A stretch of DNA of 64,000 nucleotides from Candidatus Poribacteria bacterium (GCA_963663765.2 CAXXUA010000013.1:608001-672000); one strand, 5' to 3'. Counted from the first letter of the stretch, positions 8,555-63,293 are shown. The notes: a model not told the origin generated them from the letters alone. A program made the numbers and translations.

Positions 8555-8639
8555 AAATTTCCTTTCATCAATCAAGATACTTTCATTAAATCTTGTTGTA
8601 AATGTAAGACTGGAAGACACCAAAGTTCAATTTTGTTGT

Positions 8640-14600: not shown

Positions 14601-17600
14601 GGAGACGTTGATGGTGACTGAATAGGAAGATTTTGTTTCATAGTCAAGTGCTGCACTTGTTCGCAATTGTCCGTTTGTGCTTCCAATACTAAATGAGGAT
14701 GCATCTGAGCCACTTAGACTATAAGTTAAAGTGTCGTTGTCCTCATCTGTCGCAGAAACAGCGCTGCCAATGTCTACACCGGAACCCGTATTCTCTGCGA
14801 CTGAACGGGATGCAGTCTCACCTTCTGTGAAGACAGGTGCTGTGTTCGTCGCTTCATCAACATCCGTGATGTTGATAGTGACAGCAATAGTATCACTTCC
14901 GCCTTTTCTATCTGAGACAGTGATAGTGACTGAATAGGATGACTTTGTTTCATAGTCAAGTGCTGTGCTTGTTCGCAATTGTCCGTTTGTGCTTCCAATA
15001 CTAAATGAGGATGCATCTGAGCCACTTAGACTATAAGTTAAAGTGTCGTTGTCCTCATCTGTCGCAGAAACAGCGCTGCCAATGTCTACACCGGAACCCG
15101 TATTCTCTGCGACTGAACGGGATGCAGTCTCACCTTCTGTGAAGACAGGTGCTGTGTTCGTCGCTTCATCAACATCCGTAACATTGATAGTGACACCAAT
15201 AGTATCACTTCCCCCTTTTCCATCGGAGACAGTGATGGTGACTGAATAGGAAGATTTTGTTTCATAGTCAAGTGCTGCACTTGTTCGCAATTGTCCGTTT
15301 GTGCTTCCAATACTAAATGAGGATGCATCTGAGCCACTTAGACTATAAGTTAAAGTGTCGTTGTCCTCATCCGTTGCAGAAACAGCGCTGCCAATGTCTA
15401 CACCGGAACCCGTATTCTCAGCGACTGAACGGGATGCAGTCTCACCTTCTGTAAAGAGCGGTGCCGTATTCACTGCTTCTTCAACATCCGAGACATTTAT
15501 TGTTACGGTTATTGTGTCGCTTCCATCGTTATCATCAGAGACGGTAATAATCACTGAATAGGAGGTCCTTGTTTCATAGTCGAGGGCTGTGTTCGTTCGC
15601 AATTGACCATTTGTGCTACCAATACTGAATGAAGTCGCATCAGAACCACCGAGAATGTATGTTAAAGTATCATCGTCAGCATCTGTTGCTGATACAGGAT
15701 TACCGATATTGACACCAGAACCTGTATTTTCAGCAACTGTTCGTGTAGTGGTGCTACCTTCTGTGAAAACAGGAGCGTTATTCGGGGTATCAGTATCCTC
15801 CACATCCGTAGTGGGTGCTTCTACAACGTCGGTAATGTTGATTGTAACATCAATGCTGTCCGTAAGGCTGCTATCAGAAACAGTGATCGTCACTGAATAG
15901 GAGTCCTTTGTTTCGTAATCAAGCGCGACCTTTGTCTGTAGTTGTCCCGATGTGCTATTTATGCTAAAGGATGCTGCATCGGTGCCAGAAACCGTATAAG
16001 TTAAGGTATCATTGTTAGCATCTGTGGCAGTGACAGCGGAACCAATGTCTGATCCTGCATCAGTATTCTCGGCGATAGAACGGGTTGTATTTATCCCTTC
16101 GGTGAATATAGGTGGTGTATTGACTGCGCTGAAGATTTCCAGAGGTAACTCGTTAGATTCTGCCAAGGCATACCCATTATGGTTCGTCGGTAAATTGGGT
16201 AATGTGCCAAAGTCTACTGTCACCGCATCATAAGTGTCGGGTGTGCGGTTCACCATCAAGGGTTGACTTTCTACGCTGCCTTTCAAAATTGTGATAGTGG
16301 TTGCATTATTATTCAAACTGCCGTTTGCAACAGTGATCGGCAGCACAATATCAAAAGGTGCACCTGTTGATATGACAACTTTGATTTGGTTTTCTCCAAC
16401 TTTTAGAATTGTCATATTCAGGGAAAATGGATCAACTGTATTGCCGCTCAAATCCAGTGATGTCAAAGATGTCAAACCTTCAAAAATCCCATCAGGTAGA
16501 CTTTGTAATTGGTTATTTGATAGATTCAGTGTTGATAGTGACAGTAATCCTTCAAAATCACCCGCTTGGAGCGCACTTATTGAAGCACTGCTAAGATCTA
16601 AGGCAGTAACGGTAGCAAGGTCCGCTTCTGATATGTTCCGGCAATCTTCTATACCTTGTAGCGCGGATACTATTACATCACTAACCTGTATTGTGCGGTT
16701 GCAGACAGTGGATTTAGCAAGGATATATCCGAAATGGTTAGGAGGAAGGCTTGGTAAGTTACCGATATTTACATCTGTCGTTGTCGCAACAAAAGATCCA
16801 CTTGTCACACTTCCTTTCGGTATTGTGATATTAGCGACACTTGCCTCATTGATCGGTAACACAATGTTGAATGGCGCGCCTGTAGGAATGATGGCTCTGA
16901 ACTCATTATCAGACACTTGTTGCAATGACACCATCAACGGCATTGGTGCAACAAGGTTGCCACCTAAACGAATTGAAGTGAGCGAGGTGAGATCTTCAAA
17001 GATACGAACAGGCAGGTTACGCAACATATTTCCATATAGGTTTAAACTTGTTAAACCTGTCAATCCAGAAAAATCACCGCTATTGAGTTCTGAAATACCA
17101 GCAGACCGAAGGTTTAGAGAAGTAATCGTTGCAAGATGCGTATCTGTTACATCTGCTGCTACACTTACATCCGGGATTGCTGCAACGATGGCATCACGCA
17201 CCTTTGGTGTCCGATCACTGACAGCAAGCATCGTTGAAACCGCTGGCGTGTCATCTAAATCAATGACATTAATGATGACAGAAATAGTTGATGTGAGTGT
17301 TTCATCGGAAGCATTGACAGAAACAATATAGATTCGTTTTGTTTCATAGTCTAATGCATTTTTTGTTTTCAGTTGTCCAGTGTCACTATCAATACTAAAA
17401 GAATCTGCGTTTAAACCACTAAGCGTGTATGCTAATGTATCGTTTTCAGTATCAGTTGCAGAAACGGCATTCCCGATATTCACATTAGCCGCCGTGTTTT
17501 CCGACACTGAACGCAAAGTAATATTGCCATCAGCAAAGGTCGGTGCGGTGTTTTCAGGTGTTTCAGGTTGTGTGGGAGTCTCTGGTTCCACTGGTGTTTC

Positions 17601-18296
17601 AGGTGTTGTGCTGGTGGCACTGATCACTTCAATGGGCAATGTATCAGATTTAGAAAGAACATAACCGTAGTGATGACTCGGCAAACTGGATAGCGTTCCG
17701 ATATTAGCTGTTACTGCTGCAGTCGTTCCTGCAGCGCGAGTTACCGTGACAGCAGTACTTTCTACTGCACCTTTAGAAATGGTCAGAGATGTCATATTCC
17801 CGCTAATGCTACCATTGGTAGGACTGATGGGAATACTCATAGTGAACGGTGCGCCTGTCGCGACAACGGCTTTAATCTGATCCTCTCCAACTTTTTCCAA
17901 TAAGATGGTAATTTGCATAGGATCAACAGTGTTCCCACCTAATCGCAGAGTTGTTAGTGCCGTGAGTCCTTCAAAGATACCATCGGGCAGACTGCTCAGT
18001 TCGTTGCCATATAAGTTCAGGTTAGTCAGACCAGTCATCCCAGAAAAATCTCCCGATTTTAGTGCTGTAATACCTTTTGACCGTAGGTTTAGTTCTGTAA
18101 TAGCTGTAAGGTCGTCTTCGGTGACATCTGCTGCGGAATTGACGCCCGCGGCAGTCACGATAGCAGCCTGTACCTCTGTTGTTCGCTCACTTACTGGTGT
18201 AATCTCCGCTGAACTTGTAACTGGTAAACCGAAGAAAACTAATGAACAAAGTAAAACAGATAGGACGGAACTCAGATTCTTGAGTTGTGTTTTCAT
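8640..18296 (-). CDS. Giant secreted LRR + cadherin-repeat protein, paralogue 2 (3218 aa), FlgD-Ig/T9SS-type-A-like C-terminal domain
   Basis: Signal peptide; about 19 cadherin repeats (xENT...ATDxD...LDYE...DxNxxPxF); three short and one long 24-aa LRR block (LxxLPxGIFxxLxxL); C-terminal NYPNPFNPETWIPYQL...RKMLILK. Confidence 0.95.
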   Translation of the reverse strand: MKTQLKNLSSVLSVLLCSLVFFGLPVTSSAEITPVSERTTEVQAAIVTAAGVNSAADVTEDDLTAITELNLRSKGITALKSGDFSGMTGLTNLNLYGNELSSLPDGIFEGLTALTTLRLGGNTVDPMQITILLEKVGEDQIKAVVATGAPFTMSIPISPTNGSISGNMTSLTISKGAVESTAVTVTRAAGTTAAVTANIGTLSSLPSHHYGYVLSKSDTLPIEVISATSTTPETPVEPETPTQPETPENTAPTFADGNITLRSVSENTAANVNIGNAVSATDTENDTLAYTLSGLNADSFSIDSDTGQLKTKNALDYETKRIYIVSVNASDETLTSTISVIINVIDLDDTPAVSTMLAVSDRTPKVRDAIVAAIPDVSVAADVTDTHLATITSLNLRSAGISELNSGDFSGLTGLTSLNLYGNMLRNLPVRIFEDLTSLTSIRLGGNLVAPMPLMVSLQQVSDNEFRAIIPTGAPFNIVLPINEASVANITIPKGSVTSGSFVATTTDVNIGNLPSLPPNHFGYILAKSTVCNRTIQVSDVIVSALQGIEDCRNISEADLATVTALDLSSASISALQAGDFEGLLSLSTLNLSNNQLQSLPDGIFEGLTSLTSLDLSGNTVDPFSLNMTILKVGENQIKVVISTGAPFDIVLPITVANGSLNNNATTITILKGSVESQPLMVNRTPDTYDAVTVDFGTLPNLPTNHNGYALAESNELPLEIFSAVNTPPIFTEGINTTRSIAENTDAGSDIGSAVTATDANNDTLTYTVSGTDAASFSINSTSGQLQTKVALDYETKDSYSVTITVSDSSLTDSIDVTINITDVVEAPTTDVEDTDTPNNAPVFTEGSTTTRTVAENTGSGVNIGNPVSATDADDDTLTYILGGSDATSFSIGSTNGQLRTNTALDYETRTSYSVIITVSDDNDGSDTITVTINVSDVEEAVNTAPLFTEGETASRSVAENTGSGVDIGSAVSATDEDNDTLTYSLSGSDASSFSIGSTNGQLRTSAALDYETKSSYSVTITVSDGKGGSDTIGVTINVTDVDEATNTAPVFTEGETASRSVAENTGSGVDIGSAVSATDEDNDTLTYSLSGSDASSFSIGSTNGQLRTSTALDYETKSSYSVTITVSDRKGGSDTIAVTINITDVDEATNTAPVFTEGETASRSVAENTGSGVDIGSAVSATDEDNDTLTYSLSGSDASSFSIGSTNGQLRTSAALDYETKSSYSVTINVSDGKGGSDTINITINVTDVDEATNTAPTFTDGTSTTRTVDENTKSGVDISSAVSATDADNDTLSYSLSGTDAASFSIDSSSGQLRTSAALDYETKDSYSVTITVSDGNGGSASITVTINVNDIDESPANNAPVFTNGSSTTRTIAENTASNVNVGSAVAATDADDDTLSYRISGIDAASFSIDSSSGQLRTSTALDYETKSSYSVTITVSDDQGGSSSINVTINVTNVNEAPIFTAGTSTTRTIAENAGSGINIGSAVSATDVDSTTLTYTLGGTNGASFDIESRTGQLKTKAALDYETKTSYSVTITVSDGSLTDSIAVTINVRDLDETPSNVAPVFTDGDEATRTIAENTAANTNIGTAIAATDADSENLAYLLSGTDASSFAIDGDTGQLKTSTALNYETKTSYEVIVTVSDGTLEDEINVTINVTNVNEAPVFNDGDSITRQVAENTAAGTNLGNVITATDPDAEDTITYSLGGTDAASFNIVSTSGQLKTKAALDYETKNSYTVTVIATDTGDTTDTITVTINVTDVDENRAPVFTDGESAERSIAENTGAGVNIGNAVSATDADDDTLNYSLGGTDAASFDIGSTNGQLRTKTALDYETKNAYSVTVSVSDGNGGTDSITVTIKVTDVDENRAPVFTDGESTERSIAENTGAGVNIGTAITATDADDDTLNYSLGGTDAASFDIGSTNGQIRTNAALDYETKNTYSVTVSVSDGNDGKDSITVTIKVTDVDENTAPVFTDGESTERSIAENTLSGVDIGDAVAATDADDDTLDYSLGGTDAASFSINSTSGQIRTNAALDYETKNTYSVTVSVSDGNDGTDSITVAIKVTDVDENTAPVFTDGESTERSIAENTGSGVNIGTAVAATDPDTDDTLEYSLGGTDAASFEIGSTNGQLRTKAALDYETKSTYSVTVSVSDGNGGSDSIAVTIKVTDVDENRNPSFGTAESVTLNVNENTGTGIDIGDKVEATDPDTDDTLEYSLGGTDASSFSIDSTSGQIRTNAALDYETKDTYSVTVSVSDGNGGTDSIAVTINVTDVNEAPSFTEASPTTRSIAEHTASAQNIGSAVSATDPEGDTLEYTLEGTDASSFSIVSTSGQLQTNAALDYETTTSYSVTVKVTDDSLTNTIAVTINVTDVSENTAPSFSESSFAYRISDIANASVGDSIGDKVTATDADEDTLSYSLGGDDAAKFDIDSSSGQLKITQSLIDHTSSAYSIKVIATDPDSATAEISGTIFVTRVSQQNTNNPPVFDDGESTTRSVAENTASGQNIGEPVAATDDDTDDTLTYTLEGTDASSFSIVSTSGQLQTRVTLDYETKTSYSVTVKVTDDSGASNESDTIAVTINVNDVTESDSITPVSNRTGAVRDAIVDAIEGVDAAENVTESQLAAITTLDIRNKNLTGLISGDFDGLTGLTLLNISSNKFSSLPVDIFDGLTSLTELDLSFNNFFHDDENAFTTLPDGIFDSLTSLTKLELGYNGLTSLPDGIFDQLTSLELLDLNLNEFTTLSGGVFDGLTSLKTLYLATFASETTNQLTSLRAGIFDDLTSLENLEMYDHNISTLPDGLFDNTISLIKLLYYSNGTTSLPDGIFDELTLLKTLAIGSNGITSLPDDVFDNNTQLEYLGLSYNSISSLNSDVFDELTNLETLSLEGNELTTLSADIFEELTNLTSLSLRYNSLTSLPGNIFDNNSKLTTLVLENNNISSLPSGLFSELTNLTKLFLNRNNLTSFPDGIFVGLTELTLFQCGFQGEDPQPDSVPIKVGLEKVAEGQFKVVCPTGMPINNNRINVPISNGKVHPDQEYGYIVTLDNRRPQIRIPVGEAETDALSVVRLDDTTDAVTVTIDIVFYERSLDNHGYYLDINNANLPLELIPEVSGAPTNTQLIPDETALLSNYPNPFNPETWIPYQLSEAGDVSLTIYDMRGVVIRKLDLGHKTAGYYTDRKRAAYWDGRNANGEKVAAGVYFTTFKANDFTATRKMLILK

Positions 18297-19344: not shown

Positions 19345-22300
19345 CTATTTCCTAATCAACATTTTCCGTATTTTCGTATAATTACCCGCCTTGAATTTGA
19401 CGAAATAGACACCTCCCGCCACCTTCTCACCGAGATTGTTTTTACCATCCCAATGCGCAGCACGAGGTCGGCTATAATAAACCCCAGCTGCCCGATGTCC
19501 CAAGGCTAACTCCCTGACGAGAACACCACGCACATTGTAGATTGTCAACGTGACATCTGAAGGTTTTGCTAACTGATACGGTATCCACGTTTCAGGATTG
19601 AAGGGGTTGGGGTAGTTTGGGAGTAGGGATGTTTGTATAGGAGGATTTGTTATCGAGGGGGCACCAGTAGAGGGAATTATAATATCAAGTTCTAAAGTTC
19701 TATTATCAGCTTCAATTGCAGCGACAAGTCTGCGGAGTGGGGCGTAATCTGAAATCGGATTATCAGAGAGAAATAAATACTCTAACGATGTTAGTCCTTC
19801 AAGAGGAGAGACATTGCTGATAGAATTCTCATACAGATTGAGCCCTGTCAACTTAGTCAACCCAGAAAGTGCCGATATATCGCTAATAGAATTCTGATTC
19901 AGATCGAGCTCTATCAGCGCAGTCAACCCAGAAACCGCTGATATATCACTGATAGAATTCCCAAACATACTGAGCTCTGTCAACTTAGTCAACCCAGAAA
20001 GTGCTGATATATCACTGATAGAATGATTGTTACCCAGATAGAGTTCTTTCAACACAGTCAACCCAGAAACCGCTGATATATCGCTGATGGAATTGACACT
20101 CAGACCGAGCTCTGTCAACTTAGTCAATCCAGAAACCGCTGATATATCGCTGATAGAATTGACATCCAGCCAGAGCTCTGTCAACGTAGTCAACCCAGAA
20201 ACCGCTGATATATCGCTGATAGAATTGCCCTCCAGATCGAGCGTTGTCAGAACGGTGAGATTATTAAAATCACCAGATTTCAAGGAGGAAATTGATTTAT
20301 CGAATAGATCAAGTTCCGTGATTGCCGCAAGGTGTGTTTCTGTTACATCGGAGGCAGAATTTATGCCATCAACAGCTGCCACAATAGCGTCCTGCACTTG
20401 TTGCGTGCGTTCACTGACTGGGACAAATATGGGAATTGTAATGTCAAGAGTTAAAGTTCTATCATCAGCTTCAATTGCAGCAACAAGTGTACGGAGTGGG
20501 ACGTAATTTGAAATCGAATTGCCACTGAGATATAAGGTATTTAAAGATGTCAAACCTTCAAGAGGAGACACATCGCTGATAGAATTGCTATCCAGAAAGA
20601 GCCTTGTCAACTTAGTCAACTCAGAAACCGATGATATATCGCTGATAGAATTCTCATCCAGACTGAGCCATGTCAGCGAAGTCAACCCAGAAACCGCTGA
20701 TATATTGATGATAGAATTCTCATACAGATCAAGACTTGTCAACGCAGTCAACCCAGAAACCGCTGATATATCAATGATGGAATTGTCACCCAAATCAAGA
20801 CTTGTCAACGTAGTCAACCCAGAAATCGATGATATATCGCTGATGGAATTGTCAGCCAAATCAAGACTTATCAGACTGGTGAGACCCTCAAAATCACCAG
20901 ATTTCAAGGCGGAAATTGATTTATCGTTTAGATCAAGTTCCGTGATTGCTGCAAGATGTGTTACTGTTACATCTTCTGCAGAATCTATGCCATCAACAGC
21001 TGCCACAATGGCGTCCTGCACTTGTTGCGTGCGTCCACTGACTGGGACAGAAACCAGAATTGTAATGTCAAGATCTAAACTTCCGCCAGCAGCTTTAATT
21101 GCAGCGACGAGTCTGCCGAGTGGGGCGTAATCTGAAATCGAATTACCACTCAGACGTAAGGTCCTTAAAGATGTCAAACCTTCAAGAGGAGAGACATCGC
21201 TGATGGAATTGTTATCCAGATAGAGTTCTTTCAACACAGTCAACCCAGAAACCGCTGATATATCGCTGATAGAATTGCCATCCAGATAGAGCTTTGTCAA
21301 CTTAGTCAAGCCAGAAACCGATGATATATTGCTGATAGAATTGTCATACAGATCGAGCTCTGTCAAGTTAGTCAACCCAGAAACCGCTGATATATTGCTG
21401 ATGGAATTGTTACCCAGAAAGAGCTTTGTCAACGTAGTCAATCCAGAAAGTGCTGATATATCGCTGAAGGAATTTTCAGCCAGATCAAGACTTGTCAGAG
21501 CGGTGAGACCCGCAAAATCACCAGATTTCAAGGAGGAAATTGATTTAAAGTTTAGATCAAGTTCCGTGATTGCCGCAAGGTGTGTTGCTGTTACATCGGA
21601 AGCAGAATCTATGCCATCAACAGCTGCCAGAATAGCGGTCTGCACTTGTTGCGTGCGTCCACTTAGTAGGGTAGGAGCCGGAATTGTAATGTCAAGCTCT
21701 AAACTTCTATTATCAGCTTCAATTGCAGCGACGAGTGTGCGGAGTGGGGAGTAATCTGAAATCGAATTGCCATTCAGACGTAAGGTCGTTAAAGATGTCA
21801 AACCTTCAAGAGGGGAGACATCGCTGATAGAATTGCCATTCAGATAGAGCTGTGTCAACTTAGTCAACCCAGAAAGTGCTGATATATTGCTGATAGAATT
21901 GCGACCCAGATCGAGCCCTATCAACTTAGTCAACCCAGAAAGTGGTGATATATCGCTGATAGAATTGCGACCCAGATTGAGCACTGTCAACACAGTCAAC
22001 CCAGAAAGTGGTGATATATCGCTGATAGAATTGCGACCCAGATCGAGCCACATCAGAGCGGTGAGCCCCCCAAAATCACCAGATTTCAATGAGGAAATTG
22101 ATTCATTGCTTAAATCAAGTTCCGAGATTGCCGCAAGGTGTATTTCTGTTATATCGGCTGCAGAATCTATCCCATCAACAGCTGCCACAATAGCGTCCTG
22201 AACTTGTTGAGTACGTCCACTTAGTAGGGTAGCAGCCGGAATTGTAATGTCAAGCTCTAAACTTCTATTATCAGCTTCAATTGCAGCGATAAGTGTGCGG

Positions 22301-25300
22301 AGTGGGGCGAAATCTGAAATCGAATTGCCACTCAGACTGAGCCATGTCAACTTAGTCAACCCAGAAACCGCTGATATATCGATGATAGAATTGCCACCCA
22401 GCCAGAGCTCTGTCAACGAAGTCAACCCAGAAACCGCTGATATATCGCTAATGGAATTGCCACTCAGAAAGAGCGATGTCAACGTAGTCAACCCAGAAAC
22501 CGCCGATATATCGCTGATGGAATTACCACTCAGACTGAGCCATGTCAGCGAAGTCAACCCAGAAATTACTGATATATCGCTGATGGAATTGTCTTCAAGA
22601 CTGAGGTGTGTCAACTTAGTCAACCCAGAAACTACTGATATATCGCTGATGGAATTGTCACCCAGAAAGAGCGATGTCAGTGCGGTGAGACCCTCAAAAT
22701 CACCAGTTTTCAAGGAGGAAATTGATTCATCCTCTAAATTAAGTTCCGTGATTGCCGCAAGGTGTGTTGCTGTTACATCGGCTGCAGAATCTATCCCATC
22801 AACAGCTGCCACAATAGCGTCCTGAACTTGTTGCGTGCGTCCACTTACTGGGTATGTCAGTTCGACAGTCGCAGCTGTGACAGTCACAGAAATAGTCTGT
22901 GTTACAGACAAACTCTCATCGTTTGCGGTAACCGTGATAGTAGCAGTTCCAACCGCTACTGCGCTAATCGACACTTGAGCACCGGAAACACTTGCTGTTG
23001 CCACACCGCTATTACTTGAGCTTGCTGTATACGTGAGATTATCGCCATCTGGATCAGTGAAATAACTTGAAACAGTCAAGAGTAGGGCAGAGTCATCCGA
23101 TTGCATCGTCTGTGCTGGAATAGAACCAACAGCAGTCGGCGCACGGTTCGCACCATTTACAGCTTCTGTGATATTGATCGTGACAGCCAGCGTATCTGTT
23201 GCCGAATGCCTATCCCTTGCGGTTATGGTGAGGGTGTACGTAGGCTTTGTTTCAAAATCATAAGAAGAAATACGCGTCAGTAACTGTCCAGTATGCGTAT
23301 TAAGTGTAAACCCATTCCAATCCTCGTTTGGTCCCGATTCGACATACAGCACAAAGTCACCATCTTGGTCGGTAGCGAGGACCGGTGTTCCAACTATTTG
23401 TCCTGAAGTAGTATTCTCAGGAATTGAATAAGTAACACTTTCAACAGGAAAGACAGGAGGATCGTTGACATCAGTAACCGTAATTGTTACTTGAATACTG
23501 GTACTGAGCTCACCATCTGAGGCTATGACTTCAACGGAATAAGTGCCTTTGGTTTCATGATCCAATGCATTCTTCGTTTTCAACTGTCCTGATTGTTCTG
23601 ATGTCGTAACAATACTAAAAGAAGCCGCATCTGTCCCGCCAAGACTGTAGCTCAATGGGTCACTATCAGGATCAGAAGCAGAGAAAGGTAGACCAATATC
23701 AGTGTTAGCGTCGGTGTTTTCAGCAATTTCTCGTGTAGCACTTGCGCCACCTGTAAACACTGGAGCATTGTTAACATTCTCGTCAATATTAGTGATTCTG
23801 ATTACTACTGGAAGAGTATCAGTTGCACCACTACTATCTTCAGCCCTTATCGTCACTCTGAAAACTGATTTGGTTCCAAAATCAAATGCTTGTTGTGTCT
23901 CGAACTTTCCGACAATTCCATCAGCGATGCTGAATGCTGAAGAATCCGACCCAGTGAGTGTTATTGATAACGACTCTCTTGTGTCATCTTGATCCGTTAG
24001 AGTCACTTCTGAACCAAAAATAGTTCCTATCGGCGTATTTTCAGGTATTGTATACGTTAAACTATCAACAGCAAAGACAGGCGGATCGTTGACATCAGTA
24101 ATGTCAATCGTCACTCCAGTAGAAACAATTAAGCCGAAATCAGAAATCCACAAGGTTAGTGAGTAAGAGTTTTTGATTTCGTAATCCAATGGACTCTTGG
24201 TTCTAAATTGTCCACTTCTGGGATCAATGTCAAACAACTCTTTACCAACCCCATCTATTACGTATTCTAAACAATCATTATCAGGATCAGAAGTTGTTAT
24301 TGGATTTCCGATGTTCACACCGGCAGGTGTATTTTCAGGAATACTCATGGTATAGGGACCTGGAACTGTAAACATAGGATCTCGGTTGTTTTCACGTACA
24401 TTCACTTCATTAACGTTGATGGTGACAACAATGCTATCTGAAAGTTTTCCATCTGAGACTCTGATAGTCACAGAATAGGACTTTTTATCACAATACGTTG
24501 TGCCTTTAGTTTGCAACTGTCCAGTTGTCCTAACAATGTCAAAGGATAGTCCATCGGTACCACCAAGTGTATATGTTAAGTTATTTTGATTAGCATCCGT
24601 TGCAGCAATAGGTAGACCGATATTCCTACCAGTATCAGTATTTATTGGAACGGTACGAGTCGCAGTTGTTCCTTCTGTAAACACTGGTGCTTTGTTAGCA
24701 GTACTCTCGACAATATCTATAATTCTGATTACTACCGGAAGTGTATCAGTTGCACCATTACTATCTTCAGCCCTTATCGTCACTCTGAAAACTGATTTGG
24801 TTTCATAATCAAATGCTTGTTGTGTCTCGAACTTTCCGATATTTCCGTCAGCGATGCTGAAGGTTGAAGAATCTGACCCAGTGAGTGTTATTGATAACGA
24901 TTCTCTTGTGTCATCCTGGTCCGTTAGAGTCACCTCTGAACCAAAAATAGTTCCTATCGGGGTGTTTTCACGAATTGAATAAGTGATACTTTCAACAGCA
25001 AAGACAGGCGGATCGTTGACATCAGTAACCGTAATACTTACTTGAATACTGCTGCTGAGATCACCATCTGACGCTATGACTTCAACGGAATAAGTGCCTT
25101 TGGTTTCATGATCCAATGCATTCTTCGTTTTCAACTGTACTGTTTGTTCTGTTGTCGTAACAATACTAAAAGAAGCCGCATCTGTACCGCCAAGACTGTA
25201 GCTCAATGTGTCACCATCAGGATCAGAAGCAGAGAAGGGTAGACCAATATAAGTGTTAGCGTCGGTGTTTTCAGCAATTTCTCGTGTAGCACTTGCGCCA

Positions 25301-28300
25301 GCTGTAAACACTGGAGCATTGTTAACATTCTCGTCAATATTAGTGATTCTGATTACTACCGGAAGTGTATCAGTTGCACCACTACTATCTTCAGCCCATA
25401 TCGTCACTCTGAAAACTGATTTGGTTCCAAAATCAAATGCTTGTTTTGTCTTGAACTTTCCGATATTTCCATCAGCGATGCTGAAGGCTGAAGAATCTGA
25501 ATCAGTGAGTGTTATTGATAACGACGTGTCATCCTGGTCCGTTAGAGTCACCACTGAACCAAAAATATGTCCTATCGGGGTGTTTTCAGGAATTGAATAA
25601 GTAACACTTTCAACAGCAAAGACAGGCGGATCGTTGACATCAGTAACCGTAATACTTACTTGAATACTGGTACTGAGATCACCATCTGACGCTATGACTT
25701 CAACGGAATAAGTGCCTTTGGTTTCATGATCCAATGCACTATTCGTTCTCAACTGTACTGTTTGTTCTGTTGTCGTAACAATACTAAAAGAAGCCGCATC
25801 TGTCCCGCCGAGACTGTAGCGCAATGTGTCACCATCAGGATCAGAAGCAGAGAAAGGTAGACCAATATCAGTGTTAGCGTCGGTGTTTTCAGCAATTTCT
25901 CGTGTAGCACTTGCGCCAGCTGTAAACACTGGAGCATTGTTAGTAGCATTCACGTCAATATCTATGATTCTGATTTCTACCGGAAGTGTATCTGTAGCAC
26001 CACTACTATCTTCTACCCTTATCGTTACGTTGAAAACTGATTGGGTTTCATAATCAAATGATTGTTGAACCACAAACTTTCCAACAATTCCATCAGCGAT
26101 GCTGAACCCCGAAGCATCTGACCCAGTGAGTGTTATTGATAACGACTCTCTTGTGTCATCCTGGTCCGTTAGAGTCACCTCTGAACCAAAAACATGTCCT
26201 ATCGGGGTGTTTTCAGGAATTGAATAAGTAACACTTTCAACAGCAAAGATAGGCGGATCGTTGACATCAGTAACCGTAATACTTACTTGAATACTGGTAC
26301 TGAGATCACCATCTGACGCTATGACTTCAACGGAATAAGTGCCTTTGGTTTCATGATCCAATGCACTATTCGTTTTCAACTGTCCCGTTGTAGAATCAAT
26401 ATCAAACACTGCAGCATCAGCACCGCTAAGGTTATAGGTAAGTATATCGTTATTCCCATCTGTTGCAGTGATTGCATCCCCGATGTTTATCCCCGCAACC
26501 GTATTCTCTGCAACAGAACGTGTCGTGTTGGCACCTTCTGTAATAACAGGAGCAACTTCAATACGGGAGAGAATTTCAAGTGGTAACGTATCTGATTTGA
26601 CCAATTCATAACCGGTATGCAGTGAGGGTAGACTTGGTAAAGTGCTAATATCTACTGAAACAGCATTGAATGTATTCGGTCTACGTGTGAGAGTATAAAC
26701 ATCACTTTCAACACTTCCTTTTGGAATGGTAATGCTGCCAATACCATCTGCGGTATTTGCGTTGTTTGCCACCACGTTGAGCACAATATCAAAGGGGGCA
26801 CCGGTCGGGACAACCGCTTTGAATGCACTTTCATCAACCTTTTCTAATAATACAGTCAAAGGTAACGGATCAATTGCGTTCCCACTTAGGTCTAAAGATT
26901 CTAAATTTGTCAGTCCCTTAAAAATACCATCTGGCAGTAACGCCAACCGATTTCCGCGAAAATAAATAGTGTCTAATGCATCTAAGCCAGCAAATATTTC
27001 AGCAGGTAGGTCTGTCAACGTATTATTATTTAGATACAGTGTTGTGAGTGACAGAAATCCAGAGAAATCATCTGTTCTAAGAGACACGATTCTCATTTCG
27101 TCCAAATTAAGGAACGTAATGGTAGCGATATCCACATTTGCTACGTTTTGACAATGCATGAGAAATGGATACATTGCTTCTATCGCTGAAACCACCTCCG
27201 GGGTGCGATAACAAGCTGTAGATCTCGTAAGAATATAACCGTAATGATTCAGGGGTAATCCCGGCAATGGACCAATACTTACTGACGCAGGTGTCAACGT
27301 GTCAGTAGTGGGAACGATTGTAAACGGTTGACTTGTTAGAGTTCCTGTCAGCACCGTTGCTGTTGATACGCCACTACTGATATGTCCGTTAGCAACCTGA
27401 ATTGGAACGACAATGTCAAACGGTGCCCCACTCGGGACATATACCTGAAACACGTTTTTCTCAACCTGTTGCAAAGAGACAAAAATCGGTAGTGGGTCAA
27501 GTAGGTTGTTCCCTAATCGAAGGGTTGTCAGTGATGTAAGTCCCTGAAAAATGCCAATCGGTAGTGCCGTCAGCATATTATCGTAAAGATTGATATCTGT
27601 AAGAGATGACATACCTGAGAAATCAGTCGATTGCAGTTCTGTTATACCGGTATCCCGTAGATTGAGTGAAGTAATCGCCGCTATGTGTGCCTCGCTTATC
27701 TCATCTTCACTGACGATATCAACGATTTGATCTTGTACTTGTTGGGTACGTTCATTAAGTGGTAGGAATTCAGATACAAAGGCAGTTTCTGCCAAATCTA
27801 TAACCTGGATGACCACAGTGATTATGTCGCTGAGGTCACCATCTGTAACCGTGATAGTTACCTTATATAAGGATTTCTTTCCGAAATCTAACGCTTCTTT
27901 TGTCTTGAGTTGACCTGTGTTACTATTGATGCTAAACGTTGCAGCATCGATCCCAGCAAGAGTGTATGTAAGGGTATCTGCTGCATTATCTTTATCTGTT
28001 TTTTCAGTTATATCTATTGCGACCACTGGTGTGCCGATGTTGACTTCTGCCTCACTGTTCTCTGCAATTTTACGGACAGTGATAGCACCCTCCGTGAACT
28101 GAGGGGCAGGGTTGTCAATTAAGTCGATGACGTTGACCGTGACAGTTATGGTGTCTGTGAGCAGACCATCTGAGGTAGTGATGGTAATAGAATAAAGAGG
28201 TTTTGTTTCGTAATCCAGAGATGTCTTCGTTTTTAGTTGTCCACTCTCAGAATCAATAGAAAACGCCGATGCGTCAATACCACCAAGTGTATACGTAAGT

Positions 28301-29094
28301 GGGTCGTCCTCAGTATCTGTAGCTGCAATCGGTGTGCCGATGTTGACATCTGTTTCAGTATTCTCAACGATCGATCGGGTAGCACTGGAACCCTCAACAA
28401 ACATCGGAGCAGTGTTACCTATGATTACTTCAGTAGGCACTGTTTCGGATTTGGATAACATATAACCGTAATGGTTCTGGGGTAGGTTGGGTAAAGAACT
28501 GAAATCTACGATGACAGATATTCTATCTATTGTTTGAGATACTGTGAGAGTTCCGCTATCTCTACTACCTTTTGCTATGGTTAAGGTGTTAGCATCAGTG
28601 TTAATACTACCGTTGCTGACACTGACAGGAACGACTATCTCAAACGGTGCCCCTGTCGGCACCACTGCTTTAAATTCGTTTTCTCCAACCTTTTCCAGTG
28701 TAACCGTAATAGGAAACGGATCAACAGTATTACGACCTAACCTCAATGATGTCAACGCGGTGAGACCATCAAAAATACCATCTGGAAGGCTGCTAAGTTG
28801 ATTATCATACAAGTTAATATTAGTCAGACCGGACATCCCAGAGAAATCACCCGATTTCAGTGCTGTAATACCTTTAGCTCGCAGATCGAGTGTCGTAACC
28901 GCTGCAAGGTGAGTCTCTGTTACATCTGCGGCAGAATCAACTGCTGCCGCCTCGACTATAGCAGTCTGCACCTCTGTTGTACGCTCACTGACTGGTGTAA
29001 TGTCCGCCGAACTTGCAACTGATAAACCAAAGAAAACTAATGAAAAAAGTACAATAGATATTACAGAATTCAGATTCTTGAGTCGTGTTTTCAT
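19345..29094 (-). CDS. Giant secreted LRR + cadherin-repeat protein, paralogue 3 (3249 aa), with five internalin-like LRR cassettes
   Basis: Signal peptide, three 24-aa LRR blocks, about 13 cadherin repeats, one Ig-like repeat, five cassettes of 22-aa LRRs (LTxLxLxxNSISDISAVSG), same C-terminal domain. Confidence 0.95.
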   Translation of the reverse strand: MKTRLKNLNSVISIVLFSLVFFGLSVASSADITPVSERTTEVQTAIVEAAAVDSAADVTETHLAAVTTLDLRAKGITALKSGDFSGMSGLTNINLYDNQLSSLPDGIFDGLTALTSLRLGRNTVDPFPITVTLEKVGENEFKAVVPTGAPFEIVVPVSVSNGSINTDANTLTIAKGSRDSGTLTVSQTIDRISVIVDFSSLPNLPQNHYGYMLSKSETVPTEVIIGNTAPMFVEGSSATRSIVENTETDVNIGTPIAATDTEDDPLTYTLGGIDASAFSIDSESGQLKTKTSLDYETKPLYSITITTSDGLLTDTITVTVNVIDLIDNPAPQFTEGAITVRKIAENSEAEVNIGTPVVAIDITEKTDKDNAADTLTYTLAGIDAATFSINSNTGQLKTKEALDFGKKSLYKVTITVTDGDLSDIITVVIQVIDLAETAFVSEFLPLNERTQQVQDQIVDIVSEDEISEAHIAAITSLNLRDTGITELQSTDFSGMSSLTDINLYDNMLTALPIGIFQGLTSLTTLRLGNNLLDPLPIFVSLQQVEKNVFQVYVPSGAPFDIVVPIQVANGHISSGVSTATVLTGTLTSQPFTIVPTTDTLTPASVSIGPLPGLPLNHYGYILTRSTACYRTPEVVSAIEAMYPFLMHCQNVANVDIATITFLNLDEMRIVSLRTDDFSGFLSLTTLYLNNNTLTDLPAEIFAGLDALDTIYFRGNRLALLPDGIFKGLTNLESLDLSGNAIDPLPLTVLLEKVDESAFKAVVPTGAPFDIVLNVVANNANTADGIGSITIPKGSVESDVYTLTRRPNTFNAVSVDISTLPSLPSLHTGYELVKSDTLPLEILSRIEVAPVITEGANTTRSVAENTVAGINIGDAITATDGNNDILTYNLSGADAAVFDIDSTTGQLKTNSALDHETKGTYSVEVIASDGDLSTSIQVSITVTDVNDPPIFAVESVTYSIPENTPIGHVFGSEVTLTDQDDTRESLSITLTGSDASGFSIADGIVGKFVVQQSFDYETQSVFNVTIRVEDSSGATDTLPVEIRIIDIDVNATNNAPVFTAGASATREIAENTDANTDIGLPFSASDPDGDTLRYSLGGTDAASFSIVTTTEQTVQLRTNSALDHETKGTYSVEVIASDGDLSTSIQVSITVTDVNDPPVFAVESVTYSIPENTPIGHIFGSVVTLTDQDDTSLSITLTDSDSSAFSIADGNIGKFKTKQAFDFGTKSVFRVTIWAEDSSGATDTLPVVIRITNIDENVNNAPVFTAGASATREIAENTDANTYIGLPFSASDPDGDTLSYSLGGTDAASFSIVTTTEQTVQLKTKNALDHETKGTYSVEVIASDGDLSSSIQVSITVTDVNDPPVFAVESITYSIRENTPIGTIFGSEVTLTDQDDTRESLSITLTGSDSSTFSIADGNIGKFETQQAFDYETKSVFRVTIRAEDSNGATDTLPVVIRIIDIVESTANKAPVFTEGTTATRTVPINTDTGRNIGLPIAATDANQNNLTYTLGGTDGLSFDIVRTTGQLQTKGTTYCDKKSYSVTIRVSDGKLSDSIVVTINVNEVNVRENNRDPMFTVPGPYTMSIPENTPAGVNIGNPITTSDPDNDCLEYVIDGVGKELFDIDPRSGQFRTKSPLDYEIKNSYSLTLWISDFGLIVSTGVTIDITDVNDPPVFAVDSLTYTIPENTPIGTIFGSEVTLTDQDDTRESLSITLTGSDSSAFSIADGIVGKFETQQAFDFGTKSVFRVTIRAEDSSGATDTLPVVIRITNIDENVNNAPVFTGGASATREIAENTDANTDIGLPFSASDPDSDPLSYSLGGTDAASFSIVTTSEQSGQLKTKNALDHETKGTYSVEVIASDGELSTSIQVTITVTDVNDPPVFPVESVTYSIPENTTSGQIVGTPVLATDQDGDFVLYVESGPNEDWNGFTLNTHTGQLLTRISSYDFETKPTYTLTITARDRHSATDTLAVTINITEAVNGANRAPTAVGSIPAQTMQSDDSALLLTVSSYFTDPDGDNLTYTASSSNSGVATASVSGAQVSISAVAVGTATITVTANDESLSVTQTISVTVTAATVELTYPVSGRTQQVQDAIVAAVDGIDSAADVTATHLAAITELNLEDESISSLKTGDFEGLTALTSLFLGDNSISDISVVSGLTKLTHLSLEDNSISDISVISGLTSLTWLSLSGNSISDISAVSGLTTLTSLFLSGNSISDISAVSGLTSLTELWLGGNSIIDISAVSGLTKLTWLSLSGNSISDFAPLRTLIAAIEADNRSLELDITIPAATLLSGRTQQVQDAIVAAVDGIDSAADITEIHLAAISELDLSNESISSLKSGDFGGLTALMWLDLGRNSISDISPLSGLTVLTVLNLGRNSISDISPLSGLTKLIGLDLGRNSISNISALSGLTKLTQLYLNGNSISDVSPLEGLTSLTTLRLNGNSISDYSPLRTLVAAIEADNRSLELDITIPAPTLLSGRTQQVQTAILAAVDGIDSASDVTATHLAAITELDLNFKSISSLKSGDFAGLTALTSLDLAENSFSDISALSGLTTLTKLFLGNNSISNISAVSGLTNLTELDLYDNSISNISSVSGLTKLTKLYLDGNSISDISAVSGLTVLKELYLDNNSISDVSPLEGLTSLRTLRLSGNSISDYAPLGRLVAAIKAAGGSLDLDITILVSVPVSGRTQQVQDAIVAAVDGIDSAEDVTVTHLAAITELDLNDKSISALKSGDFEGLTSLISLDLADNSISDISSISGLTTLTSLDLGDNSIIDISAVSGLTALTSLDLYENSIINISAVSGLTSLTWLSLDENSISDISSVSELTKLTRLFLDSNSISDVSPLEGLTSLNTLYLSGNSISNYVPLRTLVAAIEADDRTLTLDITIPIFVPVSERTQQVQDAIVAAVDGINSASDVTETHLAAITELDLFDKSISSLKSGDFNNLTVLTTLDLEGNSISDISAVSGLTTLTELWLDVNSISDISAVSGLTKLTELGLSVNSISDISAVSGLTVLKELYLGNNHSISDISALSGLTKLTELSMFGNSISDISAVSGLTALIELDLNQNSISDISALSGLTKLTGLNLYENSISNVSPLEGLTSLEYLFLSDNPISDYAPLRRLVAAIEADNRTLELDIIIPSTGAPSITNPPIQTSLLPNYPNPFNPETWIPYQLAKPSDVTLTIYNVRGVLVRELALGHRAAGVYYSRPRAAHWDGKNNLGEKVAGGVYFVKFKAGNYTKIRKMLIRK

Positions 29095-29284: not shown

Positions 29285-32200
29285 CTATTTTCGAATCATC
29301 ATCTTACGGGTAGCAGTGAAATCACCTGCTTTGAAGGTGACAAAGTAGACTCCCGTTGCAACCATCTCACCCAAAGAGTTCCTACCATTCCAATATGCAG
29401 CGCGCGCACGACTTTGGTAATATCCAGCAGGTTGATGTCCTAATGCCAACTCACGCACAACAACGCCACGCATATTGTATATCGTCATCGTAACATCAGA
29501 TGCTTCAGATAACTGATAGGGTATCCACGTTTCTGGATTGAACGGGTTCGGATAATTTTGATTAAATGATGTGAAATCAGGTATTGGTTGTGAATTCGTT
29601 GGAGCACCGAAAATAATTTGATTCGGTGGATTGAGGGTGATTGGTAAATTGCTCGATTTCACTAATGATAAACCAGTAAACCTTGAAGGCACTACGGCTA
29701 AATCATCAATATTTACACTAACCGAGGTTGGAGATAAAGCGAATTCTATCTCCTGCTCACTCTGAGTAGCTCCCTTTTTAATACCTAAAGTGTATGAAAT
29801 TTCATCATGTCCAATAGTAACGGTAACTGGGACATCCAATTGATACGGAATACCAGTATTAACTTCTGCAGTGAACTTAGTTTCACTTAATTTATTGAGA
29901 GATACCGTCATATTAAGTAGTGTAGTGCGATTATTAGCTGCCTTAATGGTATTAATAGAGGTCAACCCTTTAAAAATGTCATTTGGCAGTCTTTGTAAAA
30001 GATTATTCTCAAAATTCAGATGCGTTAGTGATGACAATTCCTGAAAGACTGATGAACTGAGACTGGAAATAGTGTTATAATGGAGATTTAACTTTTTCAG
30101 ACTGGATAGATCATCAAATATACCCGATGGCAAACCGGTAATGAAATTGTGATTCAAGTGAAGTTCTTTCAAGAGACTTAAACCATCAAATAGATCCGAT
30201 GGTAAAGTATGAAGATTATTGTTGTCCAAGTGTAGTTTTGTCAAAGAACTAAAACTATCAAACAGATCTACATGCAGACTTGTGAAACTATTATCACTTA
30301 AATTTAATTCTTCCAATGAAGTTAAGCCATCCAGATGATTAGAGGTGATTTCGGAGAGTGATTTATCTGATAAATCAAGCGTTTTTATACTCAACATATG
30401 TGCGTCTGTTACATCGCTTGCTTTATTTACCCCATTTATTGCCGCAACAATTGCATTACGCACTTTAGCTGGACGTTGGCTTAATGGGACGGATTCAAAT
30501 ACATCAGTGACTTGAATGGTAACGTCAATTGATTTATTACCGTCACTATTTGTAGCGACAACCCTTATGGAGTATGATTTCTTGGATTCATAGTCCAATG
30601 CAGCTCTGGTCCTTAACTGTCCAGATGTGCGACCAATTCTAAATCTATTCGCATCAGTCCCCCTAAGTGAGAAAGTAATTGGTCTTATCCCCCTCACTCC
30701 AAATGGGTCACCTATACTCGTATTTGCAGGGGTGTTTTCATCTACTGAAAGGGTAAGGTTATCTGTATCTATATCTAAAAAGATGGGTGGATTAACATCG
30801 GTCACATCATTCACATTGACGGTTACATCAATGGTGTCAGTGCTGTTGTCTGGATCAGTAGCAGTAATTGTCAAGGCGTATGATGTTTTTGTCTCATAAT
30901 CCAAAAAACCACTCGTACGTAACTGTCCAGAATCTTCAACCAAATCAAAATTGTTTGCATCTGTTCCACCGAGCGTATAGGTCAGGTCGTCGCCATCTTC
31001 ATCTGTTGCTGTAATAGGATCTCCAATGTTTGTATCAGCATCAGTATTCTCGTCTATAGACAGAGTTGTAGAATCATTTGCAAACACGGGTGCATCATTG
31101 GCATCACTCACATTTATAGTAATGTTAATGGTGTCTGATAGCGTTTCATCGGATGCAGTGACAACTACAGCATAGCTGCTCTTTGTTTCATAGTTGAGAG
31201 CTGCTTTTGTTTTTATTTGACCATTAGTTGTGTCAATGTCAAACGAGGCGGCATCTGTGCCACTGAGAGCATAAGTCAAGGTATCCTCATCTGCATCCGT
31301 AGCGGCGACAGCAGTTCCGATGTTCTGTGCTGTAGCGGTATTTTCAGCGACGGTGCGTGTTGCGCTTTCACCTTCAGTGAATTCGGGTGCATTTGCGACA
31401 ACTTCTTCCACATCTGTAATGTTGATAGTGACATTGATTGTATCCGAAGCGTCATCACCATCTTTAGCAGTAACCGTCACAGCATAGCTGCTCTTTGTTT
31501 CATAGTCCAGACTTGCTTTTGTCTTTAGCTGCCCATCAGTGCTGCCAATATCAAATGAGGCTTCATCAGTGCCACCGAGCGTATAGGTCAGGGTGTCTTC
31601 ATCTTCATCTGTTGCTGAAATAGGATCGCCAATGTTTGTATCAGCATCAGTATTCTCTGCTATAGACCGAGTTGCAGACTCAGCTGCAAATGCGGGTGCC
31701 TCGTTGACATCAGTAACATTTATGGTAATGTTAATCGTATCGGATAGATTTTCATCCGATGCAGTTACGACCACAGAATAGCTGCTCTTTGTTTCATAGT
31801 TGAGAGCTGCTTTTGTCTTTAGCTGCCCATCAGTGCTGCCAATATCAAATGAGGCTTCATCAGTGCCACCGAGCGTATAGGTCAGGGTGTCTTCATCTTC
31901 ATCTGTTGCTGAAACAGGATCGCCAATGTTTGTATCAGCATCAGTATTCTCTGCTATAGACCGAGTTGCAGACTCAGCTGCAAATGCGGGTGCCTCGTTG
32001 ACATCAGTAACATTTATGGTAATGTTAATAGTATCGGATAGATTTTCATCCGAAGCAGTGACAACTACAGCATAACTTTTCTTGTTTTCATAGTTGAGAG
32101 CTACTTTTGTCTTTATTTGACCATTAGTTGTGTCAATGTCAAACGAAGCGGCATCTGTGCCACTGAGAGCATAAGCCAATGTATCCTCATCTGCATCCGT

Positions 32201-60383: not shown

Positions 60384-60385
60384 TT

Positions 60386-62008: not shown

Positions 62009-62064
62009 GGGGTTTCCTTACAAAATATCAGTTGTGGTAAGTTTAGTAAAATCTTCTGAATGGA

Positions 62065-63183: not shown

Positions 63184-63293
63184 CTGTTTATTGGAAAAGC
63201 GGTTTCTTCAATTGAGAAATTAATTTTTCATTCATTTAGTGTATTTTCAAGTCAAAGAGATTTTAGGTCTGAAAAGGTTTGTCTTTGAATAGT

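Follow-up and report, generated by a model that had tools for sequence, protein, structure and literature searches.

Five tandem capped leucine-rich repeat cassettes with a conserved framework and variable predicted binding-face residues in a giant cadherin-rich protein of Candidatus Poribacteria

Results

Five capped leucine-rich repeat cassettes in a giant protein

We analysed a 64,000-nucleotide stretch of the genome of a Candidatus Poribacteria bacterium (GCA_963663765.2, CAXXUA010000013.1:608001-672000), hereafter the window, and focused on the gene P0001 on its minus strand (19345..29094). The gene is an uninterrupted open reading frame (ORF) of 3249 amino acids (aa) and encodes a giant, probably secreted protein in which Pfam recognises leucine-rich repeats (LRRs) and cadherin domains. 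The C-terminal third of the ORF carries five capped LRR cassettes that together span 19666-22854. Cassette 1 (22231..22854; aa 2081-2288) consists of a cap, six units and a helical C-cap, and its last unit, 1.6, is chimeric. Cassette 2 (21673..22230; aa 2289-2474) has five units, of which 2.1-2.3 are of a GRN / ISPLSG type. Cassettes 3 (21049..21672; aa 2475-2682) and 4 (20425..21048; aa 2683-2890) have six units each, and cassette 5 (19666..20424; aa 2891-3143) has eight, including the chimeric unit 5.4. All five lie on the minus strand and were delimited by their cap and end motifs. The RTQQVQ caps are at aa 2086, 2294, 2480, 2688 and 2896, and the AAI[E/K]A ends at aa 2270, 2456, 2664, 2872 and 3125.

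Counted after the first repeat, which is embedded in the cap, there are 31 units (6, 5, 6, 6 and 8), of which 30 are 22 aa long and one, unit 5.4, is 23 aa long through an extra His. Tandem Repeats Finder reported the region as five 66-bp arrays with 80-90% matches. The original prediction for this locus, which had been made from the sequence of the window, described five capped cassettes with the same numbers of LRRs, and both the motif positions and the unit counts agree with it; the eight motif strings that it quoted are all present (8/8). Two of its details need amendment: the proposed end motif APLRxLxAAIEA is exact in two of the five cassettes and only near-exact in the other three, and the proposed unit length of 22 aa does not extend to unit 5.4.

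Variation is concentrated at six positions of the unit

To locate the variable residues, the units were aligned in the register LTxLxxLxLxxNSISDISxxSG. Variation is not spread evenly over the repeat, as six of the 22 positions (3, 5, 6, 8, 10 and 11) account for 63% of the residue entropy of the 31 units. The resulting six-residue face is unique in every unit (31/31), whilst L1, L4, L7 and N12 are invariant in all 31, and L9 and I14 are each conserved in 30. The codons of the framework are also nearly fixed by position, with AAT at N12 in 31/31 units and ATA at Ile17 and TCT at Ser21 in 22/22 each. Serine is encoded by TCT or TCC at position 13, AGC at 15, TCA at 18 and TCT at 21, and isoleucine by ATC at 14 and ATA at 17. 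Such position-specific use of synonymous codons points to common descent of the DNA, and not to codon bias.

Among 17 internal units, which share 71% aa identity, mean pairwise nucleotide identity is 90.6% over the 16 framework codons versus 56.7% over the six variable codons. Across all 31 units, the corresponding values are 75.0% and 50.9%. The framework had been predicted to be nearly constant in DNA, and this is accurate for the internal units but not for the first, penultimate (…DVSPLEG) and last (…DY.PLR.) units, which carry framework variants of their own in every cassette. These position-specific variants indicate that the cassette, and not the unit alone, is also a unit of duplication.

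The cassettes are predicted to fold as separate internalin-type domains

Using a 14-row alignment of cassettes as input, AlphaFold2 produced a confident model of cassette 4 (pLDDT 96.8, pTM 0.92). In this model, two cap helices (residues 8-17 and 29-34) precede the first strand, and eight short strands follow one another 22 residues apart, falling on unit positions 6-8. A C-terminal helix (residues 183-194) is followed by a final strand. In every rung, the variable residues fall within or next to the predicted beta-strand. In LRR proteins generally, the x residues of xLxLxxN face the solvent on the concave side of the solenoid; from this geometry and the predicted strand positions, we infer that the variable residues line a concave face.

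A Foldseek search with the cassette 4 model recovered the LRR domain of InlB (1otm, 1oto) with a template modelling (TM) score of 0.85-0.87 in both directions over 197-207 columns, and the other top matches were InlC2, InlA, InlH and a Chlorobium Roco LRR. At the sequence level, phmmer matched the Roco LRR (7.7e-66) and InlA (1.9e-58) in the PDB, where the matches also include SDS22 (PP1 regulatory subunit 7) and further internalins. The SDS22-like or internalin-type LRR has the 22-residue consensus LxxLxxLxLxxNxIxxIxxLxx, with which the units agree. The unit consensus, the structural match to InlB and the sequence match to InlA all support the internalin-like character that had been proposed for the repeats.

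The likeness to internalins has clear bounds. As in Listeria InlB and InlA, a helical N-terminal cap leads into a solenoid of 22-aa LRRs (LxxLxxLxLxxNxIxDIxxLxx), and the variable residues lie on and around the strand of the concave face. However, the Ig-like inter-repeat domain that directly follows the LRRs of class 1 internalins is absent, and each Poribacteria cassette instead ends in a 12-residue helix and one strand after the last rung, with the next cap approximately 10 residues further on. The NCBIfam models for internalin_A (545.5 bits; cut-off 1600) and internalin_H (372 bits; cut-off 1050) both remained far below threshold. The protein also differs from the Listeria internalins in carrying five tandem LRR domains within a 3249-aa cadherin-rich chain, in having a C-terminal FlgD_ig / TIGR04183 domain of the type IX secretion system (T9SS) kind in place of LPXTG or GW anchoring, and in belonging to a sponge symbiont rather than a Firmicute pathogen.

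When cassettes 3 and 4 were modelled together, each half was confident (mean pLDDT 93.3), but pTM was 0.58, with pLDDT dropping to 70 where the two halves meet. This favours a view of the five cassettes as separate domains on short linkers over one long solenoid. The region is modelled as five independent capped internalin-type LRR domains, each built of a helical N-cap, a solenoid of 7 to 10 22-aa rungs, and a helix and strand at the C-terminus.

Exchange between repeat units

Two units bear the marks of exchange within the array. In unit 1.6, the 5' half follows the internal units in its synonymous markers (ACT, TTG, CTC) and the 3' half follows the terminal units, and only 3 nt separate its variable block from the block of unit 1.3. 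Unit 5.4 matches the penultimate-type unit 3.5 at 35 of 36 nt over the 5' half of the latter, and its own 3' half is of the internal type with one extra codon. By their markers, both units look like the products expected of in-register unequal exchange, a process that would also account for missing and extra units. The pairwise homoplasy index (PHI) test gave p=0.0002 on nucleotide sites and p=0.0002-0.03 with whole codons as characters, a coding that eliminates within-codon effects. Unit 2.4 was considered as a further chimera, of 3.4-like and 3.5-like units, and was not adopted because unit 4.5 is an equally good positional homologue.

The original prediction had inferred repeat-level recombination from half-motifs that recur in new combinations. 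The two chimeric units and the PHI test bear out the recurrence of half-motifs, and recombination is further supported by the differing numbers of cassettes in the syntenic genes of related species.

Cassette turnover among relatives

The nearest loci among public genomes belong to metagenome-assembled genomes (MAGs) of Candidatus Poribacteria. In the source genome of the window (6.35 Mb, 15 contigs, 97.8% complete), we found 169 matches to cassette 4, within open frames of 245 to 6570 aa. Cassette matches were present in 30 of 31 genomes (this genome and 30 relatives), among them every one of the 18 genomes sampled from the genus. When 40 genomes of the genus, again including the source genome, were searched at the DNA level, 14 yielded a match, and near-full-length matches to the upstream region and cassette 1 came only from the genomes G048 (92%) and G043 (90%). 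Both loci are syntenic with the window, as the preceding domain and the following gene are the same.

Across these three species, the syntenic gene carries five (source genome), three (G048) and two (G043) cassettes. The G048 locus, the coordinates of which coincide with those of locus L010 of OZ243938.1, has cassettes of 6, 3 and 6 units that correspond to cassettes 1, 2 (shortened) and 3 of the window. Cassette 1 and its counterpart, L010 cassette A, are 92.4% identical in nucleotides and differ at 5 of 36 variable residues; cassette 3 and L010 cassette C are 95.1% identical and differ at 7 of 36. A 3-codon indel lies ahead of the cap.

The G043 locus (L169) has two cassettes of 5 and 6 units. 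Compared with the window, its synonymous divergence (dS) is 0.07 in the cap and 0.13 upstream but 0.34 in the LRR framework, which is a paralogue-level value, and 16 of 24 variable residues differ. The internal units of G043 are nearest to their neighbours within the same cassette. The high framework dS, together with this similarity between neighbours, points to lineage-specific local replacement or re-duplication of units. The second L169 cassette (G043:C4:411500-420500) also contains four consecutive units with Gly at face position 8 (HLGLHD, QLGLNE, SLGLYE, HLGLYD), a local homogenisation that is absent from the gene in the window.

Two further observations concern more distant copies. The closest paralogous cassettes of the ISDIS type, at G000:C3:564297-566432 in the source genome, are 77-79% identical in nucleotides and 58-67% in amino acids; one frame there contains an in-frame TAG, and the locus may be a broken copy. 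The capped LRR module also occurs at 28-48% identity in loci L029, L030, L033, L036, L039, L058, L084 and others, from MAGs labelled as Dehalococcoidia, Vicinamibacterales, Nitrospirales, Latescibacterota, Longimicrobiales and Candidatus Rariloculus. At this level of identity, these matches hint at sharing of the module across phyla.

Young duplicates and change on the variable face

Framework dS was 0.24 among the 17 internal units and cap dS was 0.17 among the five cassettes, values at which the cassettes appear to be young duplicates. Nonsynonymous divergence (dN) at the variable positions was far higher, at 0.85 among internal units versus the framework dS of 0.24, and at 0.55-1.0 versus an overall dS of 0.18-0.29 in the colinear cassettes 1, 3 and 4. 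Counted per column, deviations from the unit consensus in the variable codons amounted to 14.0 at bases 1+2 and 6.3 at base 3, and in the framework codons to 3.7 and 7.6. These counts indicate that the variable codons are no older than the framework, and that their amino-acid-changing bases moved faster.

The same pattern might arise by neutral repeat evolution, in which the six positions are unconstrained, slippage and unequal crossover resize the arrays, and the diversity of the faces has no adaptive value. Such an account does not readily explain why variable dN is 3 to 5 times the framework or overall dS, why the variable codons of paralogous units changed approximately twice as often at bases 1+2 as at base 3, or why 31 of 31 faces are distinct despite a framework that is ~91% identical. 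A further point against it comes from L009, a paralogous locus in the same genome as L010 with two 8-unit cassettes that are 93.7% identical in nucleotides. In this duplicate, the variable positions show a significant enrichment in nonsynonymous change (odds 3.2, p=0.003).

Several results nevertheless favour neutrality and weigh against diversity-favouring selection. Variable dN in the L009 duplicate is 0.13 versus a dS of 0.088, which is about the synonymous rate. The same is true between the window and G048, where the two pairs of cassettes have a variable dN of 0.10 and 0.086 and an overall dS of 0.093 and 0.060, and change at the variable positions is only weakly enriched relative to the remainder of the cassette (odds 1.7, p=0.07). 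With dS of 0.06-0.09, the 5 and 7 differences in 36 residues are about the number expected if the variable positions drift at the synonymous rate. The rates from both comparisons are consistent with neutrality as well as with weak positive selection. The caps have a dN/dS of ~0.8 between cassettes, suggesting generally relaxed constraint. The excess of dN among paralogous units is itself confounded, since units compared across cassettes may not be positional homologues, the variable sites are near saturation, and gene conversion may depress framework dS. The per-codon comparison that had been suggested for the units therefore gives a divided answer, with an excess at variable positions among paralogues and about the synonymous rate between orthologues. 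On balance, we consider a wholly neutral origin of the face diversity unlikely, and favour duplication and recombination accompanied by selection. Between the window and G048, the faces appear neither frozen nor hypermutating.

Metagenome contigs and reliability of the array

Sequencing runs that contain the stretch derive mostly from one host, with a small share in a sponge metagenome. Logan contigs of four runs (four samples from two studies, one of which may be the source sample of the assembly) were aligned to the window. Exact contig pieces, with no other letters, cover 20374-20688 and 20880-21194 (20926-21194 and 20903-21103 in single runs), and further exact pieces lie at ~21312-21543, 22014-22182, ~22341-22560 and 22536-22721. 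Together these pieces cover variable codons of cassettes 1-4, and those at 20374-20688 and 20880-21194 bridge the 4/5 and 3/4 boundaries. As contigs lose rare variants, the result means that the same major sequence is present in all four samples, alongside which minor variants are possible. Stretches between the listed pieces, including the 1/2 and 2/3 boundaries, support no conclusion. Clusters of other letters are mostly the same in the four runs and lie near contig ends, as expected of cross-aligned paralogous units; those at 20910-20983 and 22789-22916 occur in only one to three runs. A single scan of metagenome contigs for strain-level alleles returned no close orthologue, and its best matches were 33-60% identical and mostly to other LRR proteins.

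Mis-assembly of near-identical repeats could in principle have altered the array, with the true gene having a smaller number of cassettes or another order. Identity between the repeats is 80-90%, and the Logan contigs break within the array, which none of them spans, are too short for cassette counts and confirm two of the four cassette boundaries. The cassette count and order depend on a single assembly. These points weigh against the five-cassette arrangement, as do a few joints within single contigs that step back 492 or 616 bases or skip 2320. However, these joints were found in one run each and have sides of 24-51 letters at 90% likeness, as is typical of repeats, and we took them to be artefacts of repeats or paralogues. 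The unique variable blocks of cassettes 1-4 were recovered exactly in at least three of the four runs, an argument that covers only those four cassettes because cassette 5 is touched by one listed piece (run X7). The exact pieces bridge the 3/4 and 4/5 boundaries, and the ORF is intact across 9.7 kb. An assembly artefact is in our view very improbable, and five cassettes in the order given remain the preferred reading.

No sign of programmed diversification

An invariant scaffold with variation concentrated on a binding face is also the expected result of programmed diversification, whether by a diversity-generating retroelement (DGR), by somatic assembly as in the variable lymphocyte receptors (VLRs) of lampreys, or by conversion from silent cassettes of the pilin or vlsE type. 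Each of these would make the face hypervariable within a population, and VLR-like hypervariability had been part of the original prediction. The many paralogous cassettes of the genome are conceivable donors. In addition, 29 of the 31 units have NNT at codon 8, the same number have it at codon 10, and 22 of 31 have NNC at codon 11, a pattern that superficially recalls the AAY codon design of DGR targets. The third bases at these codons are explained by their retention in young duplicates.

The two checks that had been proposed for a DGR were both negative. There were no matches to the reverse transcriptase family RVT_1 (PF00078) in the 97.8%-complete genome, a search that gave hits in three of the 14 genomes used as controls. 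With the unit consensus as a stand-in for a template repeat, deviations numbered 6.4 per column at consensus A, 6.5 at C, 10.2 at G and 4.4 at T, and thus showed no adenine bias and no confinement to template adenines. The DGR idea was rejected on these grounds. The array resembles DGR targets in combining a fixed scaffold with change at the putative ligand-binding residues, three of which have NNY codons; it differs in that no reverse transcriptase, template repeat or adenine-specific pattern was found. Known DGR targets mostly have C-type-lectin or Ig folds.

In VLRs, somatic assembly brings flanking donor cassettes into a germline gene that is itself incomplete. The cassettes share with them capped LRR solenoids and a concave-face diversity built from LRR-sized modules. 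However, the gene described here is one complete germline ORF with all cassettes in direct orientation, its units are 22 aa long, and neither donor cassettes nor a deaminase-linked mechanism is indicated. No recombinase was present among the larger ORFs of the window, no silent copies were seen there, and the flanking intergenic DNA contained hairpin repeats and short ORFs but no LRR or donor fragments. Neither variant assemblies in a population nor an incomplete expression site with silent donors, the features of VLR-like and antigenic-variation systems, were seen. Pieces of 165-320 nt that include variable codons were instead exact in contigs of all four runs, and cassettes 1 and 3 retain 31/36 and 29/36 variable residues in another species. 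Within the reach of these data, the finding of one major sequence in four samples and the near-synonymous rate between orthologues leave the proposed hypervariability without support. We regard programmed diversification as extremely unlikely and already close to refuted; the diversification of the cassettes appears, from the intact gene and its orthologues, to be germline and to proceed on a species timescale.

Domain architecture and export of the protein

Outside the cassettes, the protein begins with a probable Sec signal peptide (aa 1-30; 29005..29094), which was read by eye from the translation without a predictor and has a K/R-rich N-terminus, a hydrophobic stretch and ASSA ahead of D31. 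The N-terminal part (aa 31-2007; 23074..29004) contains, according to its Pfam stretches, capped LRR_8-type modules and ~11 cadherin domains, together with a sixth, diverged RTQQVQ cap at aa 449. In the whole protein, Pfam identified 19 stretches of LRR_8, 26 of LRR_4 and 11 of Cadherin, as well as Cadherin_4 and FlgD_ig. An Ig-like (Big_2-like) domain (aa 2008-2066; 22897..23073) lies directly ahead of cassette 1, and is borderline, with a PF02368 score of 22.5 bits that is slightly below the cut-off of 22.8. The C-terminal sorting domain (aa 3161-3249 and the stop codon; 19345..19614) is of the FlgD_ig / T9SS type A kind. It passed the cut-offs of PF13860 (28.8 bits; cut-off 27) and of NCBIfam TIGR04183 (25.1 bits; cut-off 23), and was below that of PF18962 (19.4 bits; cut-off 27). 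By TIGR04183, the protein has the above-threshold sorting domain of T9SS type A cargo. All these features are on the minus strand.

From its signal peptide and tail, the protein is most likely displayed on the cell surface or released. It would be exported by the Sec system and then sorted through its C-terminal domain to the surface or the medium, by a route that is uncertain, and its cadherin and LRR_8 part would form a long stalk. The slight trace of T9SS machinery weighs against this scheme. Searches of the source genome for the SprA/Sov translocon and PorV gave two matches, at G000:C4:1173509-1177468 and G000:C15:37447-38436, and both were sub-threshold: one SprA-like, a frame of 2162 aa (64.8 bits; cut-off 200), and one PorV-like (108.8 bits; cut-off 250). 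In the available text of Kamke et al. 2014 (PMC3909097), the Por structural genes are reported as not found in Poribacteria. The two matches hint at a divergent T9SS-like export system.

Genomic neighbourhood

Four giant LRR/cadherin genes, of which P0001 is the third, follow one another in tandem on the minus strand (2..8623, 8640..18296, 19345..29094 and 29285..39448) and encode more than 2874, 3218, 3249 and 3387 aa. Three of the four share the FlgD_ig / T9SS-type tail. The 22-aa ISDIS-type cassettes occur only in the third; the other three have 24-25-aa LRR_8-type modules behind a similar cap. On the plus strand, several ORFs of 100-200 aa lie antisense to the cassettes within 20087-22825 (for example 20519..21130 and 22247..22825). 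Their own sequences are repetitive, and they most likely arise from the codon pattern of the repeat and are not genes.

Between two of the giant genes, at 18424-19047, a 152-bp element is present in four tandem copies, each with a long internal inverted repeat. It is dispersed in the genome (139 matches, many of them 90-100% identical) and looks like a hairpin element of the miniature inverted-repeat transposable element (MITE) or repetitive extragenic palindromic (REP) kind. An Rfam search of the intergenic hairpin repeats gave only far sub-threshold matches to microRNA hairpins, which we consider noise. Elsewhere in the window, a 939-aa ORF at 41826-44645 fuses an extracytoplasmic function (ECF)-type sigma-70 factor (regions 2 and 4) to BNR/sortilin-like beta-propeller repeats. 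A defence-like cluster at 57738-63938 comprises a type III restriction helicase (ResIII), an N6/N4 DNA methylase and two CAP12/Pycsar-type TIR-domain genes.

Discussion

The pattern described here is likely, with good confidence, to be the result of ordinary duplication, repeat recombination and selection, with no dedicated hypervariation system. We propose that cassettes and single units were recently duplicated, and that in-register unequal recombination or gene conversion between them would then have produced chimeric units and altered the numbers of units and cassettes. Amino-acid change at the solvent-exposed x positions of LxxLxLxxN would have followed under relaxed constraint and, probably, diversity-favouring selection, whilst purifying selection would have maintained the hydrophobic framework. 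The mode is one of birth-and-death and concerted evolution, in a known class of eukaryote-like proteins of sponge symbionts.

Poribacteria are described by Kamke et al. 2014 (PMC3909097), in its available text, as rich in LRR proteins (pfam12799), in cadherin genes with signal peptides and in TIGR04183 tails. The protein encoded by P0001 belongs with these eukaryote-like repeat proteins by genome, domains, signal peptide and TIGR04183 tail, sharing with them the phylum and the LRR, cadherin and Ig-like domains. That text has no description of the capped cassette of 22-aa units, of its multiplication in tandem, of the pattern at codon level or of the turnover of copies between species.

In evolutionary mode, the cassettes most resemble the repeat arrays of fungal NOD-like receptors (NLRs), for which Dyrka et al. 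2014 (PMC4986451) report, in the part available, high internal conservation of ~85% identity in WD40 (HNWD), ankyrin (ANK) and tetratricopeptide (TPR) repeats. Both systems have near-alike repeats with few variable positions on the interaction surface, shuffling by concerted evolution and differences in repeat number. Internal conservation, excess nonsynonymous surface change and shuffling are all found here as well, with a selection signal that is confounded by recombination. The systems differ in fold (LRR in this case), in organism (a bacterium) and in setting (an extracellular adhesin-like protein versus an intracellular receptor of the signal transduction ATPase with numerous domains, or STAND, class). 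Internal aa identity is also lower here (71% versus ~85%), and the differences in repeat number seen here are between species.

The variability of LRR x positions, internalin-like folds in bacteria, and the LRR, cadherin and TIGR04183 proteins of Poribacteria were already known. Our literature searches returned no paper that combines Poribacteria and internalin and, in titles and abstracts, none on diversifying selection in the LRR proteins of sponge symbionts. New in this study are a precise description of five capped InlB-sized domains in tandem, the codon-level evidence of young duplication with fast change of the face, and documentation of how rapidly cassettes turn over between species. 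The speed of this turnover is illustrated by syntenic genes that are ~90% identical in DNA and carry five, three and two cassettes. The locus demonstrates that simple duplication, recombination and selection can produce what looks like programmed hypervariation, and calls for caution, as young LRR arrays by default combine an invariant framework with variable x positions.

The cassettes are candidate ligand-binding modules, whose 31 different rungs would provide five different concave faces. With less confidence than we place in the evolutionary account, we suggest that they bind molecules of the host or of neighbouring cells with differing specificities. A more speculative and rather doubtful extension is that the ~170 capped cassettes, distributed over dozens of giant surface proteins, make up a recombining germline recognition repertoire. 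If true, this repertoire would be a bacterial counterpart to the repeat arrays of fungal NLRs or to plant NLR clusters, in which 27-nt face blocks are exchanged in register between 39-nt constant blocks and new faces are selected. Each symbiont lineage, and perhaps each strain, would have its own set of binding surfaces, and the numbers of cassettes and units would be polymorphic within populations. The targets could be sponge molecules, possibly the cadherin repeats of the host or of bacteria, by comparison with InlA and E-cadherin.

Sponge symbionts are thought to handle their host through eukaryote-like repeat proteins. The cassette is a confidently predicted InlB-sized module that may be expressed separately, and a single gene of this symbiont offers five natural variants of it for binding screens.

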